Shown here: one piece after another, positions 5,408 through 34,071 of the stretch | How positions within the stretch are numbered: position 1 is the first letter of the stretch | How the letters are laid out: the number at the start of each line of letters is the position of its first letter | Assembly (NCBI GenBank): GCA_049322915.1 | Contig: JBMOPW010000035.1 | Location: 64,001-128,000, forward strand | Source: Candidatus Zhuqueibacterota bacterium | GTDB lineage: Bacteria; Zhuqueibacterota; Zhuqueibacteria; Thermofontimicrobiales; Thermofontimicrobiaceae | Direction of reading: 5' to 3' | DNA length: 64,000 nt | Translations under genes and position numbers: made by a program | The notes under the pieces: model-generated | Database searches by the model: none | What the model was told of the DNA's origin: nothing | The model's input: the letters and a program-made list of their open reading frames with translations, nothing else

Positions 5408-6733
5408 ATGAAAGTAAAACTTTTTACCATTTGTAGTCTGTTGCTACTCTCCATGATTCTTATTTTTACCTGGGGATGTACTGATAAATACAAACCCGCT
5501 CCCAGCGTTTTCTCCTCTGTGGAAGAATCAAGTTGTACGCACTGTCACCTTGATGCAACTCTACTGAAACAAGTGGCCACGCCAATTCCCCCGGATGAAG
5601 GCGAATCAGGCGAGGGTTGAGGCGGCGCTGTGTCTCAGTTAGAGGCATGGGAAATGGTACTTGTTGATAACAGTTTTCTGAATACAAAACACGGCAGCTT
5701 CGGATGCACGTCATGTCACAAGGGTAATAAAGACGCGTACGACAAAGAGACCGCTCACGTCAGCCTGGTCGCTGCGCCGAGCGAAAATGATGCCACGTAC
5801 TGCTCCGGTTGCCATGAGGATATTGTGGCTCATTATGCATCCTCCCTTCACAAGACACAAAAAGGGTACTTCAAGCGAATCGAAAATCGATTGGGGTACA
5901 GCATAGAAAGTGACGCGGGCATAATGGAGAAATATGATGAGGAATGCGGGAAATGCCATGTCAGTTGTGGGCAATGCCACATCTCCCGACCGGTTTCAGT
6001 AAAAGGCGGATTCATCGCCGGGCACAATTTTGGCGCGCCGACGCGGGATAACAATTGCGTGGCATGTCACGGCAGCCGCGTTGGGGCAGAATACCTCGGA
6101 CAAAACGAAAACTATGCGGCTGATGTCCACCGCTACAAACCAGGCGGCAGCAATTGCACCATGTGCCACACCGGCATGGAAATGCACGGGACCGGCGAGG
6201 AATTCGACTACCGTTACCTGAATACGGATATGCCGCGCTGTGAAAATTGTCATGCAGATGTCGACACAATTAATTTCTACCATCAAAAGCATGTGTCCAG
6301 CACCACGATACCGACGCTCTCCTGTCAGGTATGCCATTCACAGGATTATAAAAACTGCAATAGCTGCCACACCGGCGGCGCCGGCATTACCGGGGATTCC
6401 TATTTCAAATTCAAGATTGCCAAGAATAAATTCAATCTCGAATCTGCAAACCGTACCTATGATTACGTGGCAGTCCGGCACATTCCGATTGCGCCGGACA
6501 CATACGCAAGTTGGGGAATAACTGATTTACCAAATTACAACACTGAACCTACGTGGAAATATGCAACGCCGCACAACATTCAACGCTGGACCGCTCGGAC
6601 AGATACGACGGGTAGCACCCGATGCTCGAGCAAATGCCATAATTCGACGACCTATTATTTAACTTCAGCCGACTTATTCGACTATGAAGTCGAAGCAAAT
6701 AAAGATATTATTATGGACGACAAACTCAAATAG
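5408..6733 (+). CDS. Probable selenocysteine-containing multiheme cytochrome c lipoprotein (441 aa, Sec71, 10 CXXCH + 1 CX3CH)
   Basis: ORFs 5408-5620 and 5630-6733 are in frame across TGA 5618-5620 (...ESGEG-U-GGAVSQLEAWE...). Only the first part has a lipoprotein signal (TWGC). A SECIS-like hairpin follows the TGA. Confidence 0.8.
5630..5648 (+). promoter_or_regulatory. Bacterial SECIS-like hairpin
   Basis: GUGUCUC-AGUUA-GAGGCAU; the loop starts 16 nt after the UGA and has G at loop position 2. Confidence 0.7.
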
Positions 6734-14257: not shown

Positions 14258-15430
14258 TCACTCGAAAGATTTGCGTTGGAAGTACTCGCTGTAAGCCGCC
14301 CACAGGCTGGTAACAAAACGCTCCGTGTCGTCTGCCGGTTTCCCTTCTGCCTGTTGCAATGATTCTTCCAATTTAGTGTTGATCATCTTGCTGATCTCGT
14401 GAAATCTATCAATTTCCTTCTGATACCATTGCATTGTGTCCGAGCCAATCTTCAGCCCCGGCAGTTCATTGCTGAGATTCTCCGGTTCGATGTTGCACAT
14501 CCATCCAAGTTCATACGGCTTGATATTGACATAATCGATATGGTCTTCGAGATTGGCATTGATCGATACCACGGTTCCGCTGATGGGAGCGGGAAAATTC
14601 AGGGACTGGTCGCCGCGCTGCACGGTGAACAGCAAATCACCTTTTTTGACTTTCTGCCCCTTCTTTGGCAGAACAACGCTTTTGATTTTGCTCAAAATCT
14701 TTTGGGAGAAATCATCGATGCCGACGCGCGCCAATCCGTTCAAATCAATTCTGACCCAGGTGTGAGTCGGCGCTATGAAAATCCCGGCTGGCACATTAAA
14801 TTCATGGCTTGATTTGGACTCGCCGTGCGAAGGAGTAATGAGATGCACCGCCGGCTTGGTGACACGCTCGATCTTGTCCTGGCGCCGGATTAACGACTTG
14901 TTGACAAAATCCACCAATTCATCTTCAGTGAATGGCTTTTGCACATAATCCGTGGCGCCGTATTTCATGGTCGCCACAGCGGTTTCAATGGTCGCGTAGC
15001 CGGTGATGACGATGATATCGATATCCGGACGCAGATGTTTTGCAGCCTTGGTCACTTCAACGCCATCCATCACTGGCATTTTCAAATCCGTGAACAGGAA
15101 ATCGTATTCGGTCTTCTTCAAAAGCCCCAGGGCCTCGGGACCGGTCTCCACGGTATCGATTGAATATCCGGCCAGCACCAGTATTTTTCGGAAACTTGCC
15201 AGTACCACTTCTTCATCGTCCACTGCCAGAATTTTAGCTTTGGGATGGTCGACTTCGACCCGTTTCAGGGATTTGGCCTCTTCCGTGAAATCTAACCGAA
15301 GGCCAATGTCCAGAGCTTCTTCCCGTTCTTTCTTAAGTTTGGAATGCTCCATTTTTTTAAGAACGATTCGTAAAACGGCGTCAGCCAGAATGAAAATAAT
15401 AACGGTTACAATCAGAAATAAGACGACCAT
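14258..15430 (-). CDS. Membrane-anchored response regulator receiver fused to a GcvH-like domain
   Basis: N-terminal TM, REC domain (LAVDDE...DLKMP...KPF), then HTWVR..VGIDDF..APISGTV..N..PYELGW. Confidence 0.8.
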   Translation of the reverse strand: MVVLFLIVTVIIFILADAVLRIVLKKMEHSKLKKEREEALDIGLRLDFTEEAKSLKRVEVDHPKAKILAVDDEEVVLASFRKILVLAGYSIDTVETGPEALGLLKKTEYDFLFTDLKMPVMDGVEVTKAAKHLRPDIDIIVITGYATIETAVATMKYGATDYVQKPFTEDELVDFVNKSLIRRQDKIERVTKPAVHLITPSHGESKSSHEFNVPAGIFIAPTHTWVRIDLNGLARVGIDDFSQKILSKIKSVVLPKKGQKVKKGDLLFTVQRGDQSLNFPAPISGTVVSINANLEDHIDYVNIKPYELGWMCNIEPENLSNELPGLKIGSDTMQWYQKEIDRFHEISKMINTKLEESLQQAEGKPADDTERFVTSLWAAYSEYFQRKSFE

Positions 15431-15506: not shown

Positions 15507-16301
15507 TTAGATGCGGCGAAGGCTCAAGTTATTCAGGTCTTTCTCCAGATTTGTCGGAACGACTTGAATCAGCCAGCCATCATGATACGGAGAGGTATTT
15601 AATTTATCCATCTCGCGTTCCAGGCGCTTGTTCAAAGCGACAATCTTACCGCCTAGTGGCGCCCACACCATGTGATTGAGATAGTCTTCCGAGATAATTC
15701 GCACACATAAATTCCCCTGTGATATCTCATTATTGACAAGCGGGAATTCTATTGAATTGATCGTTCCCATGCAGCCAGCGAACGTTTCCCCCAAACCCAG
15801 CGTGCAGATGCCGTCGCTATTCAATTTTGTCCAGGAGTGCTGACCTAATAAATAATACGGCGCTCCTTCGCTATTCTGCTGCGCGTCGTTCTGGAGTTGT
15901 AGGGATGATTGCGTTTCAGTTGCCCGTTCACTGAATTTCTTCGCACGAAAAATGACGCCAGCCAATTCTTCAAAATCAAACGGTTTGGGAATACAATCAA
16001 ATGCACCTGTCCTGAAAATTTTCACGGCATTGGCGTGTGAAGCATAGCCGGTGATGATGATGATTGGAATTGTCGCATTCAATTTTCTGGCATATTCGAT
16101 CACTTCGATTCCGGATTTACCAGGCAACATGAGATCCGACAGTATTAATTGATATTGATTTTTATCGAGTTTATCGAAAGCGCCCTCTGCGCTTTGCGCC
16201 ATATCGACATGAAATCCTTCGACGCTTAATATTCGTCTGGCTGCTTCAGCAACCACCAGTTCATCTTCGACCAGCAGAATATGATTATTTGGGTTCGTCA
16301 T
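15507..16301 (-). CDS. Response regulator receiver fused to a GcvH-like domain
   Basis: REC domain (LLVEDE...DLMLP...KPF) plus HSWTK...APLGGKIVALN...SPYHDGWL. Confidence 0.8.
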   Translation of the reverse strand: MTNPNNHILLVEDELVVAEAARRILSVEGFHVDMAQSAEGAFDKLDKNQYQLILSDLMLPGKSGIEVIEYARKLNATIPIIIITGYASHANAVKIFRTGAFDCIPKPFDFEELAGVIFRAKKFSERATETQSSLQLQNDAQQNSEGAPYYLLGQHSWTKLNSDGICTLGLGETFAGCMGTINSIEFPLVNNEISQGNLCVRIISEDYLNHMVWAPLGGKIVALNKRLEREMDKLNTSPYHDGWLIQVVPTNLEKDLNNLSLRRI

Positions 16302-17931: not shown

Positions 17932-18735
17932 TCAACACGTAATGTCACCCAGCACACTGGTCACTAAATTGAGATAGTGCTCGGGAGGCAATGAATTGAT
18001 CAGATCCCTTGAAAATACGCCCATGTCATCCAGCAGAATATCTGATGTGAGCGAACCGGCCTGGCAGGTCTCTGACAGTTTGTACTCCAGCCATTTCATT
18101 TCATCCAGATACCAGGAGAATAACGTCTCTCCATTTCGACAATATGAAAGATCCTGGCTTAAATTTTTTGGTTCCACAATCAACATCCACCCGCGATTCA
18201 CCGGATCGAGCGTCAACTGGTTCGGCGCGAGTTGCAGTTCTGGATTCACGACTTTGATCCGGCCAGCTACCGGCGTCGGAATGGAAAAATTGTACTTCCC
18301 GCGTTTCACGTGGCCACAGCATCCGCCTTTTGTAATTTTTTCATCGACGCGGGGAAGCGTGATTTCATCGACAGAACCTAATACAACAGCGGCGACATTA
18401 TCAATGCCCAGTTTCACCTCGTGGGGACCAACAATCTCGATCCAGACATGCCGGGAACTGACAAAATAATTTTCACTCTGCTTGATTTTCACCAGGTGAT
18501 CGAGCGATGAAAAATATCTGAATGAATTGCGCGTGATAACGCTGGCGTCGGTGAAAAATCCCCGCAACGCCTTCTCCAACGGGCAGTTTTCGCACTCAAA
18601 ATTTCTATTGCAAATCTTGTAGGATAACTCTCCCAGTTCAACCCAATCACAGACACTATCACTTTTATCGATCAAGTGGGATAATGGTTTTGGTCTGGAA
18701 TTTCCCATGAGTATAAATCCCTTCTCATCTGACAT
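17932..18735 (-). CDS. Cys-rich domain fused to a GcvH-like domain
   Basis: C-D-W...KIC...FECENC followed by HVWIE..LGIDN..TPVAGRI..N..DPVNRGW. Confidence 0.75.
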   Translation of the reverse strand: MSDEKGFILMGNSRPKPLSHLIDKSDSVCDWVELGELSYKICNRNFECENCPLEKALRGFFTDASVITRNSFRYFSSLDHLVKIKQSENYFVSSRHVWIEIVGPHEVKLGIDNVAAVVLGSVDEITLPRVDEKITKGGCCGHVKRGKYNFSIPTPVAGRIKVVNPELQLAPNQLTLDPVNRGWMLIVEPKNLSQDLSYCRNGETLFSWYLDEMKWLEYKLSETCQAGSLTSDILLDDMGVFSRDLINSLPPEHYLNLVTSVLGDITC

Positions 18736-19022: not shown

Positions 19023-19940
19023 TTGGAACTAACAAGAAGAAACTTTCTGAAATTCACTGCAGCCACCGGCACAGTGGGCATTGCCGGTGCTGCGAAGAAA
19101 GCGTCTGCTTATTCAGAAAAGCCTCTTGCAGCAGAATGGATGGGAGTGCTGGTCGATACGACAGTCTGTATTGGTTGTCGCAAATGTGAATGGGCCTGCA
19201 ACACTGCCAACAAGCTTTCTGAAAAATCCATTACTGAGTTCGAGGATAAGTCCGTGTTTGAGCAAATGAGAAGGCCGGACGATACCGCCTACACCGTCGT
19301 CAACGAGTATGAAAACACGAAAAACCTGCAACTCCCCTATCATGTCAAAGTCCAATGCATGCATTGCAATAGCGCGGCATGCGTCTCGGCATGCATCGTC
19401 GGAGCGCTGACAAAACACCAGCAAACAGGAACCGTTCATTACGATCCCTGGAAATGCATCGGGTGTCGCTACTGCATGGCGGCATGCCCATTTCAAATCC
19501 CTGCATACGAGTATCACAACGCATTGACGCCTCAGATTCGCAAGTGTACATTCTGCTTCGATCGGATTACACAGGCAGGTGGTATCCCTGCCTGCGTTGA
19601 GATATGCCCGGTCGAAGCGCTCACCTTTGGAAAGAGGAACAGCCTGATTCAGGTGGCGCGCGAAAAAATTGCCAGACAGCCCGAACGATACGTCGATCAT
19701 ATCTATGGCGAGCACGAATTGGGCGGAACCTCGTGGATGTACCTTTCTGGCCGACCCATGGAGGAAATGGATATGGAACGTTTCGGCAATCGCCCGATTC
19801 CCCAATATACCGAACCAATCCAGCATGCGATTTTTAAAAATTTTATACCGCCGCTTTCCTTGTTCGCGTTCCTGGGCATCATCATGAAATTGTTCAAAGA
19901 CAGGGACAATGGCCATTCAAAGGAAGGAGGTTCAAAATGA
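19023..19940 (+). CDS. Tat-exported 4Fe-4S protein (HybA/HmcB/NrfC-like)
   Basis: TTG start after GGAGG, RRNFLK Tat motif, CIGCRKCEWAC, CMHC..AACVSAC, CIGCRYCMAACP, KCTFC...ACVEICP, C-terminal TM. Confidence 0.9.
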   Translation: MELTRRNFLKFTAATGTVGIAGAAKKASAYSEKPLAAEWMGVLVDTTVCIGCRKCEWACNTANKLSEKSITEFEDKSVFEQMRRPDDTAYTVVNEYENTKNLQLPYHVKVQCMHCNSAACVSACIVGALTKHQQTGTVHYDPWKCIGCRYCMAACPFQIPAYEYHNALTPQIRKCTFCFDRITQAGGIPACVEICPVEALTFGKRNSLIQVAREKIARQPERYVDHIYGEHELGGTSWMYLSGRPMEEMDMERFGNRPIPQYTEPIQHAIFKNFIPPLSLFAFLGIIMKLFKDRDNGHSKEGGSK

Positions 19941-21127
19941 GTTCTCACCATGTCGCTGCTAAACCTGTGAACAAGAAATTTTTCACAACCGGCGTAAAAA
20001 TACTGTTCGCACTGTTTGGAACCGGAATGGCCTTTGGCCTGTATCGTTTCATCTTTGGCCTGGGTTCGGTCACCCATTTGAACAACCAATTTCCACTGGG
20101 TTTATGGATTGGCGTTGACGTTGCCAGCGGCGTTGCGCTGGCTGCAGGCGGATTCACGACAGCCGCATTGATTCATATTTTCTACCGCGACAAATACGCT
20201 GTATTCGGAAGGCCGGCGCACCTCACCGCGATGCTGGGATACACTTTTGTAGCCCTCGGCCTGTTATTCGACCTGGGCCGATGGTATAACGTCTGGCATC
20301 CAATGCTGCCGATGATGTGGCAGGGGAATTCCGTGCTCTTCGAAGTCGGCATCTGCGTGATGATGTACCTGACGGTTCTTTACATTGAATTCGTACCCAT
20401 TGTTGCTGAGCGCTTCATCGGAAAATCGCCCAAATGGATCGATTCGATCCTGAGAGTCCTCAACAGGATACTGGATAAAATCATGTGGATTTTCATCATC
20501 CTTGGGGTATTATTATCCTGTCTGCACCAATCTTCACTGGGGAACCTCATGGTCATTGCTCCCTATAAAATGCATCCGTTATGGTACACTCCAATTTTGC
20601 CGCTATTATTCCTTGTCTCGGCGATCGCTGTCGGCCTGCCCATGGTTATCTTTGAATGTACCATTGCCTCGAAATCGTTCGGCTGCAAACTGGAAATGGA
20701 CGCTTTAACGCCGCTATCCCGCATCGTCGCTGTGCTGCTGAGCCTGTACCTCTTCCTCAAGGTCGGTGACCTTACCATTCGCAACGCCTGGGGATACATT
20801 TTCGATGGCACCTATCAGACCAACTTCTTCTTGCTGGAGTTAGTCGCTGGCATTCTGGTTCCGCTGATCATGTTTCTGATGAAGAAGGTGCGGCAATCCC
20901 CGCCTCTGTTATTCACGGCAGCAGCCTTATACATCGTATTCGGCGTATTACTGAATCGAGTCAATGTATTTTTCATTGCCTATCGACCTAAATATATGAC
21001 GGAGCCGTATGTGCCGGCCATCGGAGAAGTGGCAGTCACAGTCGGCCTTATTTCCGCGCTGATGATATGCTATCGGATCATTGTCACAATTTTTCCAATT
21101 CTTCCGGCGCAGGCGAAAGACTCGTAG
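19937..21127 (+). CDS. NrfD/HybB/HmcC-family membrane subunit
   Basis: GVALAAGG, DLGR, LFEV..C, LHQSSLG motifs; multiple TM helices. Confidence 0.9.
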   Translation: MSSHHVAAKPVNKKFFTTGVKILFALFGTGMAFGLYRFIFGLGSVTHLNNQFPLGLWIGVDVASGVALAAGGFTTAALIHIFYRDKYAVFGRPAHLTAMLGYTFVALGLLFDLGRWYNVWHPMLPMMWQGNSVLFEVGICVMMYLTVLYIEFVPIVAERFIGKSPKWIDSILRVLNRILDKIMWIFIILGVLLSCLHQSSLGNLMVIAPYKMHPLWYTPILPLLFLVSAIAVGLPMVIFECTIASKSFGCKLEMDALTPLSRIVAVLLSLYLFLKVGDLTIRNAWGYIFDGTYQTNFFLLELVAGILVPLIMFLMKKVRQSPPLLFTAAALYIVFGVLLNRVNVFFIAYRPKYMTEPYVPAIGEVAVTVGLISALMICYRIIVTIFPILPAQAKDS

Positions 21128-21161: not shown

Positions 21162-22292
21162 ATGCTTAAAAAGATATTTTTAATCATGTGTCTGATGGTT
21201 TCCGGATTATTCACCGTGCTTTTCGCTCAGCAGCGGACCATTCACACGACGGAAGGTGTGGATTGCTCGATCTGCCACTCGTGTAATAATCCAACAAAAA
21301 GCAAACCGTGCTTGAAAGCCTGTCCCCGACCGTTTCATAACAATGAAAAGGGCGAGAAACTTTCGTCCGAACAGGGACCCGATTTTGTCGTGCTGAACGA
21401 ACTGGAAGAATTGTACGAACCGGTTGTATTCTCACACACGATGCATTCAAAAATGACCAACATGTCCGGCGGATGCACCCTGTGTCATCATTTCACACCG
21501 ACCAACCAATCGCATCCCCCGTGTAAGGAGTGTCACAGCACTGAAGTCATTCACGAAAATCTGAATCAGCCTTGCCTGAAAGCTGCCTACCATCGGCAAT
21601 GTATTTCGTGTCACCAGGACTGGAGCGGCGACGCCAATTGTGAAAAATGTCATATGATGAAAGAGAAGATGAAAGCCGCAGGCGACAGCTATATTCAGCC
21701 AACGTATAAAAAATGTAAAGAACCTGATTTGAAAATCTACAAGACTGGCAATACAGAAGCTCCTACGGTTACGTTCTTTCACAGCAATCACGCCGGTTTT
21801 TATTGCCTGGAATGCAAAGACTGTCATCGCGATGATCCTTGCATCCGATGCCATTATCAGGGCAATGCAACTGTTTCAACCATTGATAAAGATACAGACG
21901 TCATGCACCACAAATGCTCCGCATGTCACGCCGTGGATAATCCCAGCGAGTGCGCGAAGTGTCACAGCAAAGAAGAAAAACAGGGATTTGATCATGGCCG
22001 CGATGCCGGTTGGGCGCTGAATAAATATCACAACAAACTCGCGTGCAATAGCTGCCATCCTAAAGAAACACGACTTGGCAAGCTGGATAAATCGTGCGGG
22101 AACTGCCACAAGAATTGGAATTCTCAGAATTTCAATCACGCCATTGTTGGCCTGGAATTGGATGAAATTCATCGGGATGCAGATTGCGCCGATTGCCATG
22201 TTAACCGACAATTCGACAAAAAACCAAGCTGCTCCAATTGTCACGATGAAACGCCGGAAGGCAAGCCAGGCGCCGTCACCCGGCAAAATTAG
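21162..22292 (+). CDS. Multiheme cytochrome c3-family protein (13 CXXCH; HmcA-like)
   Basis: Signal peptide; 13 CXXCH counted; PVVFSH..H and LKAAYH.QC c3-type motifs. Confidence 0.9.
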   Translation: MLKKIFLIMCLMVSGLFTVLFAQQRTIHTTEGVDCSICHSCNNPTKSKPCLKACPRPFHNNEKGEKLSSEQGPDFVVLNELEELYEPVVFSHTMHSKMTNMSGGCTLCHHFTPTNQSHPPCKECHSTEVIHENLNQPCLKAAYHRQCISCHQDWSGDANCEKCHMMKEKMKAAGDSYIQPTYKKCKEPDLKIYKTGNTEAPTVTFFHSNHAGFYCLECKDCHRDDPCIRCHYQGNATVSTIDKDTDVMHHKCSACHAVDNPSECAKCHSKEEKQGFDHGRDAGWALNKYHNKLACNSCHPKETRLGKLDKSCGNCHKNWNSQNFNHAIVGLELDEIHRDADCADCHVNRQFDKKPSCSNCHDETPEGKPGAVTRQN

Positions 22293-22321
22293 TAAACACA
22301 AAACGTATGCATTACGACAGT

Positions 22322-22400
22322 AAAGTGGAGTGATGGAAACATAATGATGATTTTGGAAAGTTGGAAATCCAGCCCATTCAACTTTCCACCACTCCACTTT
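22322..22400. repeat. Imperfect palindromic intergenic element
   Basis: AAAGTGGAGTG...GGAAAGTTG / CAACTTTCC...CACTCCACTTT. Confidence 0.55.
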
Positions 22401-22569
22401 TGCGTACTTCATCCTGGCCATCCATGGCCAGAGAGGAAAGATACATCGCTTCTGCCTCGATTGAAACAAGGATGGGTATGAGTTACACTATCCCTTCTGA
22501 GCATATCAGATTTTTGATTTTTGATAATTACCCGCCATAACGTCCATACAAACAACATTAAAAAAGATG

Positions 22570-22598
22570 TTGACATTTTAATATTTATTAATTATATT
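22570..22598 (+). promoter_or_regulatory. Sigma-70-type promoter upstream of the FDH maturation/FDH operon
   Basis: TTGACA-N17-TATATT. Confidence 0.7.
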
Positions 22599-22657
22599 GC
22601 CACCTTATAATTTTTGCCCGAAGCTTTCCTTCATGTATCTAACTAAGAGGTAAATGA

Positions 22658-22807
22658 ATGCTTAGTTACTATTGCCGTTGAGGGTGACGAGAATTATTCA
22701 TCCAAGTTTTGGATGACTCGCCATTATCAATGAGGACAAAGGTGACAAGCATTTTTCACCTTCTCTCCTCTAACATTTACTTCCTCTTCAAAATGGACGT
22801 TTATTAA
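22658..22807 (+). CDS. Candidate 49-aa leader peptide/micro-selenoprotein with two in-frame UGA codons (MLSYYCR-U-G-U-RELFIQ...)
   Basis: RBS AAGAGG 7 nt before ATG; TGA at 22679-81 and 22685-87; hairpin TCATCCA-AGTTT-TGGATGA at 22698-22716; TAA at 22805-07. Confidence 0.4.
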
Positions 22808-23074
22808 TTCTGAAAATCCATTTGATTCATAGTTACTTTGTGCAGCATATGCGTGTCAATATGTTTAGCTGAGAGCACTCATTTGAATTCATGAATCAGA
22901 CCGGCATGTTTTCTTTTATCGGAAATCAGATCACGCGACGTTGAAAGACAGCCAGGTCAATCAAATCTGTTAACAGCCAACCAGTGGCAATTACGGGCAT
23001 TGCGACATGTTCGTATGTGTTCATTACCGGCCACTATCAGGAAATCAGAGGAATTCACACGGAGCATTAGACAT

Positions 23075-23653
23075 TTGACAGGCATTATATTAGCGGGTGG
23101 CAAGAACAGCCGCATTTCCATGACCAAAGCCTTCATTCAACTGGGCGAACAAACAATCATCGAAAGAACCGTTGACATTTGCAAGACGTTGTTCAATGAG
23201 GTAATCATTGTCACCAACCACTTTGATGATTACCTTTATCTGGGAACAAAATTGGTTCAGGACGCAATTCCCAACACGGGTCCATTGGGCGGTCTGTACA
23301 GCGGATTAATGGCATCGACCAATCTGTATAATTTTGTCGTTGCCTGCGATATGCCCTTTATTAATCCTGCAATCATTCGGCACCTTCAGTTATATACACA
23401 AGACGAACATTACGATGTTATTCTCCCTGAATATAATGGATTCACCGAACCATTATTTGCCTTCTACTCGAAAAATTGTATCAATACCATCGAAGTATTT
23501 TTGAACCAGAACAGATTGAAAATCCGAACTTTTTTCACCAATATCAAAGTCAAAGAAGTGAAATGCGATAAGTTCAGCGCTATAGAAAAATCATTTTTTA
23601 ACATTAATACCCGGGAAGATTTACAATTAGCAAGAAACCTCATCTGTGGATAA
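23075..23653 (+). CDS. mobA: Molybdenum cofactor guanylyltransferase
   Basis: GIILAGGKNSR, GPLGGL, VACDMPF, FNINTREDL; start uncertain (TTG 23075 after GGAG; the open frame extends to 23000). Confidence 0.88.
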   Translation: MTGIILAGGKNSRISMTKAFIQLGEQTIIERTVDICKTLFNEVIIVTNHFDDYLYLGTKLVQDAIPNTGPLGGLYSGLMASTNLYNFVVACDMPFINPAIIRHLQLYTQDEHYDVILPEYNGFTEPLFAFYSKNCINTIEVFLNQNRLKIRTFFTNIKVKEVKCDKFSAIEKSFFNINTREDLQLARNLICG

Positions 23654-32862: not shown

Positions 32863-32873
32863 ATGAAGCATAA

Positions 32874-32972
32874 AATCTCCGAGTCCTTTTACCTGCAGGG
32901 AAACCCATGGTAAATCGACCGATAGGGTTTGATTGGAAACAAGCAAGCCTCCCGGACTTGGAAAGGAGATCC
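32874..32972 (+). ncRNA. Moco RNA motif (molybdenum/tungsten cofactor riboswitch)
   Basis: ATCTCCGAG...ACCT...GGT...AGGG...GGAAAC...GCCTCCC...TGGAAAGGAGAT, with P1 formed by ATCTCC/GGAGAT. Confidence 0.85.
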
Positions 32973-32977
32973 TTATT

Positions 32978-33139
32978 ATGTCTGCTCATTTTCATACCAG
33001 TTTCACCTCAAAGGAAATTCTCTTTTTCACCCCAGATATCACATTGCGCTATGTTCAATCTTATTTGTCTGGCATGGGAGCTTTGTCATTTTGTTGTCCA
33101 GCTTACCCTGAAACCGCAGGACTTTATTGTATTTGCTGA
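32978..33139 (+). CDS. Possible 53-aa Cys-containing small ORF using the riboswitch RBS
   Basis: AAGGAG 9 nt before ATG; MSAHFH...FCCPAYPETAGLYCIC; no recognised homology. Confidence 0.3.
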   Translation: MSAHFHTSFTSKEILFFTPDITLRYVQSYLSGMGALSFCCPAYPETAGLYCIC

Positions 33140-33276: not shown

Positions 33277-34071
33277 ATGAAATTGTTGTCCAAACGTTCG
33301 TTGTCCTTTCTTCTTGTTGTCTTTCTTTTATGCACCTTGATCATTAGCTGCGATAAGGATAATCCGGCTGAACCGAAACCAGAAGAGGATAGTTATCTCT
33401 GGATTCACTTCAAATCGGACTCAACCAAAATCGAGTTTGAGGCATTGCCCAAAATCGATGCGGATGGTGAAGAGGCAATTCAACTCAGCTCATTTATCGA
33501 TACAACGCTCGTAGCAATTTTCCGAGATAAAAATGGTAATCCGTATGACGCCAGAAAACTTTATGCTTATCAGGTCAAAGGTGAAGATGGATTCTCCGCA
33601 TCATCAAAAGGCTATTTAAACAACACATGGGAGCAACTCTCTCTGGGACATATCATCACAGCGACCCGGCAGGTTGTTTTTCCAGACGATAAAATCGATC
33701 TGGCTGGCGCCTATAATGTCAAATCAACCCTTCACATCTTTCTCCACCGCAAGTTTGATATCATCACCCCGGACACAACGACCTTCGTTGAACTCCGCGC
33801 GCTGAATCAAACATCCATCACGAACCTTGATGGGCAGATGGAAAACGCCCTGGTTCTGAAAGATTTCGTAACAACGCTGGTGACCGCCCCTGAAAGTCGT
33901 ACGTTCAATATGAGATCGCTGGACGATTTCGGGCCCTCCTCCGACATGACCTGGGAGCAATTCCAGACTGGTTATTGGCTGATGAGCAGTGAATCGACCA
34001 TGTTCACCGATCCAGCTTTCAATTCAGGAAGATATAAAGTAAAAGTCTTAGAAAAAATTCTGGTGAATTAA
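33277..34071 (+). CDS. Lipoprotein of unknown function
   Basis: Lipobox IISC; two similar halves (..TWEQ...G); 3 bp upstream of the TonB receptor. Confidence 0.75.
   Translation: MKLLSKRSLSFLLVVFLLCTLIISCDKDNPAEPKPEEDSYLWIHFKSDSTKIEFEALPKIDADGEEAIQLSSFIDTTLVAIFRDKNGNPYDARKLYAYQVKGEDGFSASSKGYLNNTWEQLSLGHIITATRQVVFPDDKIDLAGAYNVKSTLHIFLHRKFDIITPDTTTFVELRALNQTSITNLDGQMENALVLKDFVTTLVTAPESRTFNMRSLDDFGPSSDMTWEQFQTGYWLMSSESTMFTDPAFNSGRYKVKVLEKILVN

Follow-up and report, generated by a model that had tools for sequence, protein, structure and literature searches.

We analyzed a 64,000-nt stretch of contig JBMOPW010000035.1 (positions 64,001 to 128,000 of the forward strand, assembly GCA_049322915.1) from a Candidatus Zhuqueibacterota bacterium, hereafter the window, and found that a ~780-nt intergenic gap in it holds a compact element, in which a promoter and a Shine-Dalgarno (SD) sequence lead into a ten-codon open reading frame (ORF) with two in-frame UGA codons, followed by a hairpin resembling a selenocysteine insertion sequence (SECIS). 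The bases of this mini-ORF are ATG CTT AGT TAC TAT TGC CGT TGA GGG TGA; AAGAGG lies at 22645-22650 and the ATG at 22658, with the SD ~50 nt 3' of the promoter. The same unit is present in two further sequences: G016, a KSB1 metagenome-assembled genome (74% complete) from another family of the same order, and L060, a metagenome contig closely related to G016. The SD, the ATG, and the two UGAs one codon apart are kept in all three sequences, and the element is a candidate leader that decodes selenocysteine (Sec). Its parts in the window are as follows.

22570..22598, + strand: sigma-70-type promoter TTGACA-17-TATATT with an A-tract 5' of it; 11 of 12 positions matched
22605..22646, + strand: presumed 5' untranslated leader, poorly conserved in the alignments; transcription start inferred from the -10 box
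22647..22651, + strand: SD sequence GAGGT, 6 nt before the ATG in the window and 7 nt in G016 and L060
22658..22687, + strand: conserved mini-ORF core M-L-S-Y-Y-C-R-UGA-G-UGA, with UGA1 at 22679-22681 and UGA2 at 22685-22687
22688..22697, + strand: spacer between UGA2 and the hairpin, free in sequence and fixed in length; 6 of 10 bases differ from G016 at equal length
22698..22716, + strand: apical SECIS-like hairpin TCATCCA-AGTTT-TGGATGA with CGAG/CTCG below it, starting 10 nt after UGA2
22717..22754, + strand: 3' arm able to pair back onto the mini-ORF (extended hairpin), including TCAATG opposite CGTTGA, and AAAGGTGAC
22732..22770, + strand: terminator-like hairpin T (GAGGA..AAGGTGA / TCACCTT..TCCTC), -9.8 kcal/mol, without a U-tract in the window
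22688..22807, + strand: window-specific continuation of the frame, 39 codons to the TAA at 22805-22807, spanning hairpin T and a C-rich, G-poor tract

The initial annotation had reported the promoter TTGACA-N17-TATATT, the ribosome-binding site AAGAGG, the ATG, and an M-L-S-Y-Y-C-R-U-G-U frame that stays open for 39 more codons to the TAA ending at 22807, and each of these was found where it had been placed. The same applies to the hairpin, whose loop G at 22706 is separated from UGA2 by 18 nt and from UGA1 by 24 nt. The long tail of the frame did not hold up as a feature of its own, as it is not conserved: G016 and L060 stop after L-K, and the probability that a 39-codon tail stays open by chance is ~0.08 (about 8%). 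The C/G ratio at 22728-22805, within the tail, is 1.9.

The promoter at 22570-22598 is the sole strong sigma-70-like site within 22000-23400, and its hexamers and their spacing are identical in the window, G016, and L060. A-tract/TTGACATT promoters of similar make also occur at unrelated loci in the relatives; hence, the promoter type is generic for the clade. Nearly the same arrangement, an A-tract and TTGACATT-N17-TATAWT, stands before many unrelated genes of the order (L006, L008, L009, L010, L047 of G018, and L050 of G007), and these promoters are alike enough to give BLAST matches between genomes. Weak BLAST matches to 22548-22601 were accordingly rejected as homologues of the element, being generic promoters of this type in front of unrelated genes.

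Conservation and SECIS geometry

An 828-nt query covering the whole gap recovered the element in one of 60 relatives, G016, with 72% identity over 22559-22721 (E 9e-15); the remaining eight matches, in seven further genomes, comprised the mobA start, a 29-nt stretch, or the promoter only. With shorter queries, the core was 84% identical over 75 nt between the window and G016, and the rest of the ~780-nt intergenic region gave no alignment. No other genome of the order (21) or the class (125) was found to carry the element. BLAST against the 125 class genomes (E up to 0.01) returned three matches, the third being a 32-nt match without the frame, and a covariance model built from the three sequences hit two of the 125. 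Five further weak BLAST matches in relatives contained neither the frame nor the hairpin and were set aside. A hairpin scan of all GTDB species genomes matched the G016 contig only, a scan of JGI metagenome contigs for the peptide in all its synonymous codings, TGN standing at both UGA positions, matched one contig, L060, and viral contigs gave no match to the peptide pattern.

A 269-nt contig from a groundwater run (X2) represents a near-identical strain and shares ~96% identity with the window; not one listed change falls within 22626-22715 vs. five within 22527-22625, and five more differences near the contig ends are unlisted. With G016 paired with L060 and the window with X2, the element therefore occurs in two deep lineages, each with one close variant. 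The differences between the window and G016 are distributed unevenly along the element.

SD to ATG: 3 of 14 bases differ, including a 1-nt indel
ATG to UGA2: 2 of 30 bases differ
Spacer: 6 of 10 bases differ, length unchanged
Apical hairpin: 2 of 20 bases differ, one loop base deleted and one closing base changed
20 bases 3' of the hairpin: 11 of 20 differ
Terminator-like region: 11 of 31 bases differ

The UGA-to-loop distance is the same in the window and G016, and the two changes in the mini-ORF, TGC to TGT and GGG to GGA, are both synonymous third-position changes. The G016 frame reads M-L-S-Y-Y-C-R-UGA-G-UGA-L-K-stop, and L060 departs from it only by CTG to CTA and TAG to TAA, which keep the leucine and the stop. 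Read in its own lineage, each of the four in-frame substitutions is thus silent. In contrast, the window and G016 differ completely in the three codons that follow UGA2, which are R-E-L in the window, where the frame runs on for 39 codons, and L-K-stop in G016. This distribution of changes fits a putative coding frame joined to a protein-binding loop, and the double-UGA frame with its hairpin, reported at first from one sequence, stands as a conserved unit.

Conservation is also the real test of whether the element arose by chance, and judged by it the element is more than a chance assembly. Taken singly, the pieces are common, as the 6.25-Mb genome has 37 AGU-loop hairpins that follow a TGA at such distances with a stem of 6 bp or more, and just two lineages carry the element, as would suit a random assembly of motifs or functionless neutral DNA inherited from a shared ancestor or by transfer. 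We consider such an origin very improbable. The composite motif (an SD and a start codon within 30 codons, an in-frame TGA, and a hairpin with an AGU[U/A] loop spaced as in the element, all located outside long ORFs) occurs only twice in the whole 6.25 Mb, one of the two being the mini-ORF site; this count is a rough background and not a test because the descriptor was written after the site had been seen. Moreover, the flanking intergenic DNA has diverged beyond alignment, yet the core remains 84% identical over 75 nt, and the adjacent cytochrome shares only 61% protein identity. The second composite match, G000:C35:58303 on the minus strand, has no co-directional gene downstream and was rejected, as were TGA-plus-hairpin look-alikes on C7 and C14, which belong to a repeated ~100-nt element without a common frame. 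The copies of this repeat, at G000:C7 ~212,840-212,960 (+) and G000:C14 ~653,990-654,110 (-), are intergenic and each contain a TGA followed by a G-U-rich AGUUU-loop hairpin.

The hairpin was compared with reference Sec sites of the clade, namely those of the Sec-containing formate dehydrogenase (Sec-FDH; three genomes), a Sec-containing multihaem cytochrome, and PrxU (six genes, from the window's own genome and four of five relatives). All six PrxU genes have their stem at positions +11..+17 counted from the UGA and the loop A18-G19-U20-U21, and the stem bases covary (UCAGC/GCUGA, UCGGC/GCUGA, and UCCGC/GCGGA). UGA2 and its hairpin have a geometry identical to that of the PrxU SECIS in the window, G016, and L060. 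Measured from UGA1, the loop G is at +25, and it is at +24/25 in the three Sec-FDH genes. The cytochrome SECIS has an AGUUA loop with the G at +18 in four of five genes, and a CGUUG loop in G016. By the clade's own standard, the mini-ORF hairpin is a SECIS as judged from its geometry, and the SECIS-like character first assigned to it is borne out by the match to all six PrxU genes. The spacings of 17 nt and 23 nt given for the two other SECIS of the window, in the Sec cytochrome (UGA 5618, AGUUA loop) and in Sec-FDH (UGA 26022), were likewise reproduced.

The machinery for Sec insertion was sought in five genomes. tRNA-Sec was above the Rfam cut-off in 5/5, including G000 and G016, and the SelB wing domain was present in 4/5, including G000, the exception being the 74%-complete G016, where none was found. 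An in-frame TGA occurs in a Sec multihaem cytochrome gene of G016, and both carrier genomes combine tRNA-Sec with genuine selenoprotein genes. An Rfam scan gave no match at the site with E up to 1, in a scan where the genuine FDH SECIS reached only 22 bits vs. a gathering score of 63.

The Sec cytochrome of the window (5408-6733, + strand, TGA 5618) has a lipoprotein-type signal, the motif GESGEG-U-GGAV, and the AGUUA-loop SECIS; orthologues with one in-frame TGA each occur in four of five relatives tested, and a multihaem cytochrome selenoprotein family is on record in the available part of the PMC13188914 table. G018 encodes two PrxU paralogues in tandem (G018:C127:12857-14283, L086/L087) with 87% and 49% identity to the G000 PrxU; both have an in-frame TGA, and in both the stem of the AGUU-loop SECIS has covaried.

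We consider it likely, though well short of certain, that the mini-ORF is translated and decodes Sec by means of a real SECIS, whether as a sensor or as the gene of a very small selenopeptide, because constraint on the ORF strand is far stronger than on the strand it pairs with, an SD and an ATG are present, the changes are silent, the spacing is fixed over a drifting spacer, and the geometry is exactly of the PrxU type.

A stand-alone micro-selenoprotein gene is one form that such decoding might take. The product would be a Cys-x-Sec-x-Sec peptide with a redox or a metal/selenium-binding role (MLSYYCRUGULK in G016 and L060, 49 residues in the window), and hairpin T would end the gene. Consistent with this, the unit has its own strong promoter, an SD and, in G016 and L060, a U-tract terminator; all 10 residues are identical across two families vs. 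61% identity for the neighboring cytochrome; and the two silent changes between G016 and L060 keep L-K-stop. However, the part after UGA2 is unconserved between the lineages, with 2 residues vs. 39, the 49-residue read-through product has no Pfam or NCBIfam match with E up to 10, and no maturation or partner gene is common to both genomic contexts. Neither did a word-indexed search, in which a protein had to share three 5-residue words, find a Cys homologue of 26-86 residues among 5.8 billion proteins, proteins of fewer than 26 residues not being searchable. Double-Sec UxxU and 'UXX-star' families are known among prokaryotic selenoproteins from the available part of PMC13188914, but a UxU motif is absent from that part of its table. 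Taken together, we regard a micro-selenoprotein gene as doubtful.

Genomic surroundings of the element

The gap follows an operon encoding an iron-sulfur (FeS) protein with a twin-arginine translocation signal (19023-19940), an NrfD-type membrane protein (19937-21127), and a multihaem cytochrome c (21162-22292). Directly 3' of the cytochrome c gene, 22302-22416 forms a long near-perfect hairpin, probably the terminator of this operon; on the minus strand, it also gave a plant-microRNA match that is spurious (23 bits vs. 73). Downstream of the gap are mobA, fdhD, fdhE, the gene of the Sec-containing FDH alpha subunit (TGA 26022), and those of an FeS subunit and a second NrfD protein.

23075..23653, + strand: mobA, first gene of the mobA-fdhD-fdhE-Sec-FDH operon; probable start TTG 23075

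The longest mobA frame opens at TTG 23000, and the Pfam match begins at residue 28 of that frame. TTG 23075 has a GGAG 10 nt upstream and is where similarity to the relatives begins; the mobA start is probably this TTG because the Pfam match and the cross-genome similarity both begin there. Accordingly, the mini-ORF lies ~390 nt upstream of mobA, and the hairpin ends ~360 nt before it.

In G016, the element again follows an orthologous FeS-NrfD-cytochrome c operon (protein identity 80, 87, and 61%), and behind it are a paralogous FeS-NrfD-cytochrome set, the small and large subunits of a [NiFe] hydrogenase, hycI, hypB, hypF, and hypD. The L060 element likewise precedes an FeS-NrfD-cytochrome c-[NiFe] hydrogenase operon. 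The large subunit of the [NiFe] hydrogenase behind the G016 element has the motif DPCLACAIH with Cys and not Sec. A [NiFeSe] hydrogenase at this place was considered and rejected, since the TGA is an ordinary stop and the Ni-binding motif DPCLACAIH holds Cys. A second hydrogenase was not found in G016, and G000 and G018 yielded none. The operon behind the element thus depends on Sec in the window (Sec-FDH) and does not in G016 (Cys-type [NiFe] hydrogenase).

G013 keeps the cytochrome-to-mobA synteny without the element, and G018 has a different promoter-led stretch, ahead of hypF. A degenerate remnant 3' of the G018 cytochrome, suggested by common TGAACGAG and GAATTATT strings, was too weak to claim. 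The expectation that the upstream ORF and the hairpin would be conserved in relatives was therefore borne out in part, the unit being kept in G016 and L060 but not before the Sec-FDH operons of G013 and G018. The specific tie to mobA-fdhD-fdhE-fdnG proposed in the initial annotation was not supported, as the same element precedes a hydrogenase operon in G016 and L060 and those two Sec-FDH operons have no such leader. In both contexts, nevertheless, a hairpin stands at the end of the upstream operon, and up to the next operon on its strand the element is followed by no further promoter with 10 or more of 12 positions matched. With the upstream operon closed by a hairpin and the promoter of the element the sole strong one before the next operon, there is room for a leader role.

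Two other features of the neighborhood were recorded. A Moco (molybdenum/tungsten cofactor) riboswitch at 32865-32984 (+), scoring 73 bits vs. a gathering score of 36, lies downstream of the FDH cluster, ahead of an ORF at 33277-34071 without a Pfam match. Three proteins encoded at 14258-15430 (-), 15507-16301 (-), and 17932-18735 (-) all contain a glycine-cleavage H-protein (lipoyl-type) domain; two of the three, in which it is fused to a response-regulator receiver domain, are encoded next to a histidine kinase, and the H-protein domain is unusual as an output domain. G016 has a 45%-identical H-protein-domain counterpart beside its orthologous FeS-NrfD-cytochrome operon.

RNA pairings and a possible sensor of Sec insertion

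RNAalifold folded the three sequences into one long hairpin of 39 pairs, two of them compensatory, in which the mini-ORF forms the 5' arm and the SECIS-like stem-loop the tip. On the 3' arm, UCAAYG lies opposite CGUUGA, AAAGGUGAC opposite AGUUACU, and GAGGU pairs with the following RCCUU. The long hairpin pairs 97% of the cells vs. 36-46% in slid controls, a control that is flattered because the structure was derived from the same three sequences. The window RNA folds unusually well, with z = -3.9 (0/200 shuffles as stable), and that of G016, with z = -1.85, does not. The two compensatory pairs are at the same positions as the silent ORF changes TGC/TGT and GGG/GGA.

A second hairpin, T, forms when AAAGGUGA pairs alternatively with UC(A/G)CCUU(U). 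In G016 and L060, UUUUAUUAU comes after T, which has -11.7 kcal/mol. When transcripts are cut at the T loop, the extended ORF-pairing hairpin is the minimum-energy fold in 3/3 sequences, with the ORF paired to the 5' half of T, whereas a ribosome-sized footprint on the ORF is predicted to let T form in 3/3. The two pairings are mutually exclusive in silico. The pairings that would sequester the ribosome-binding site, named in the initial annotation, are present in the window and have no counterpart in G016 or L060, and they were dropped.

A structured RNA that acts without Sec decoding, either a small RNA or a leader binding SelB or another protein, with the frame incidental or only the heptapeptide MLSYYCR released at UGA1, would draw on several of these results. 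The 39-pair hairpin fits all three sequences with 97% vs. 36-46% of cells paired, the window fold is unusually stable (z = -3.9), both ORF substitutions are compensated on the other arm, and a promoter, a short RNA, and a terminator make up the usual shape of a small RNA gene. In addition, a SECIS-like hairpin can reportedly act without UGA decoding, as in the E. coli selAB leader. Nevertheless, the 5' arm differs at 2 of 30 bases vs. 11 of 20 in its pairing partner, and this lopsided conservation indicates that something besides pairing constrains the ORF strand. The SD, the ATG, the two UGAs, and the exact distance from UGA to loop are retained despite a drifting spacer, no Rfam family covers the site, and the structure comes from the very sequences that it is said to fit, with a slid control that flatters it. 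We therefore hold a structured RNA of this kind to be unlikely.

The reading that we tentatively favor, with less than even confidence, is that the mini-ORF is a leader-peptide-type sensor of Sec-insertion capacity acting as an attenuator. It is favored because the regulatory codons are in tandem, the frame heads an operon, ORF pairing and the terminator-like hairpin are alternatives, and the product is unconserved beyond residue 10, and also for the precedent in Treponema primitia described in the available part of PMC3892789. The stretch would be a conserved head of a transcription unit, with a strong promoter, a short leader, an SD, a ten-codon frame, and a SECIS-type hairpin. Ribosomes would translate the mini-ORF and, with SelB on the hairpin, would read both UGAs as Sec. 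The mini-ORF is the 5' arm of the long hairpin and the partner strand holds the 5' half of T, so that the fold would be set by whether a ribosome sits on the UGA pair, leaves it, or moves past it, the choice being made while the polymerase is just downstream. Conservation, SECIS geometry, the presence of Sec machinery, and the mutually exclusive in silico pairings are shown; translation, Sec insertion, and any effect on downstream transcription, in whatever direction, are inferred. The unit would then sense Sec-insertion capacity ahead of whatever respiratory operon comes next, that is, Sec-FDH in the window and the FeS-NrfD-cytochrome c-[NiFe] hydrogenase operon in the relative.

Several findings weigh against such a sensor. 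The element is rare, being present in only two independent lineages (2/125 class genomes); the upstream cytochrome has an orthologue in seven genomes, and it is followed by the element in only two of the seven. Nor does a comparable leader precede the orthologous Sec-FDH operons of G013 (76% identity) and G018 (86% identity). No selenoprotein was found in the G016 downstream operon, so the quantity sensed and the genes regulated are not obviously linked, and the next gene lies 240-310 unconserved bases away from the element. All seven sense codons are conserved, which a leader that counts codons would not need. As regards the folds, T lacks a U-tract in the window, and in G016 and L060 it is predicted in every state, including the free full-length RNA, which would suit a small-gene end better than a switch. 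Both silent changes between the window and G016 are also compensated in the fold and cannot separate coding from structure, and the covariation is not significant with three sequences, as 108/500 shuffles reach it.

A further elaboration is one sensor with two outputs, and we think it improbable. The mini-ORF would measure the supply of Sec-tRNA and SelB, and the end of the frame would set the sign of the response. In G016 and L060, the stop three codons after UGA2, before an intrinsic terminator, would turn on the selenium-free [NiFe] hydrogenase when Sec is scarce. In the window, with the frame extended over the hairpin and the C-rich, G-poor tract, only Sec-competent ribosomes would shield the RNA; transcription would then continue into the Sec-FDH operon and switch it on under ample Sec. 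Selenium-dependent switching of hydrogenases, reported for Desulfovibrio vulgaris, would be a parallel.

Among known systems, the trpL-, hisL-, and pheL-type leader peptides are transcription attenuators of amino-acid operons. Like them, the mini-ORF is a short SD-led frame at the head of an operon, with adjacent codons for the amino acid sensed and overlapping alternative hairpins, one of them terminator-like. Unlike them, it would sense at a stop codon whose recoding depends on SelB and a SECIS, it precedes respiratory and not biosynthetic operons, one of the two operons has no selenoprotein, T has no U-tract in the window, and the system is known here from sequence. Such amino-acid-operon attenuators are also described in the available part of PMC3892789, as is the T. 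primitia gene fdhFSec, where selenium controls transcription via the behavior of the ribosome at a UGA and SECIS inside the gene. The fate of the ribosome at a UGA and SECIS would decide downstream transcription in both cases, but the UGA and SECIS of fdhFSec lie inside the enzyme gene, whereas the mini-ORF is a dedicated ten-codon frame ~390 nt upstream with two UGAs.

The SECIS of the clade's PrxU genes shares with the mini-ORF the stem at +11..+17, the AGUU-loop G at +19, and a UGA in frame behind an SD-led start; the differences are that the host frame here has 10-12 codons and that a second UGA, 6 nt upstream, shares the hairpin. A SECIS-like element in the 5' untranslated region of E. 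coli selAB, reportedly described by Thanbichler and Bock in 2002, is said to need no UGA decoding, to adjoin the selA start, and to control sel genes. Both it and the present hairpin would be SelB-type hairpins in a leader and not in a selenoprotein gene, but here the hairpin is ~360 nt from the next start codon and the downstream genes are not sel genes. A hairpin at the regulated start with sel genes behind it, the reported hallmarks of a selAB-type operator, was found neither in the window nor in G016.

The UxxU, 'UXX-star', and 'KCU-star' families listed in the available part of PMC13188914 resemble the mini-ORF in having two Sec residues a few positions apart, or a Sec near the stop with the SECIS beyond the stop codon. 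Unlike these folded families with database models, the mini-ORF has no model and no 26-86-residue homologue, and its UxU motif is absent from that part of the table. We found no description of a Sec-codon leader frame in the open-access full-text literature, and the available part of PMC13188914, a 2026 review of the prokaryotic selenoproteome, contains neither 'leader' nor 'small ORF'. Leader-peptide sensing and SECIS-dependent recoding are each known; their combination in the mini-ORF, seen in two lineages, appears to be new.

If the product is the 12-residue peptide, it would be the shortest selenoprotein known to us; the family table of PMC13188914, in the part available, lists only proteins with database models. 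Under either reading, the element is a compact, testable construct of ~170 nt. Bacterial sensing of selenium status is poorly understood. If the sensor reading is true, this tandem-Sec leader would correspond, for selenocysteine, to what the trp and his leaders are for their amino acids, and such a sensor would work without a regulator protein and could be placed before any operon.

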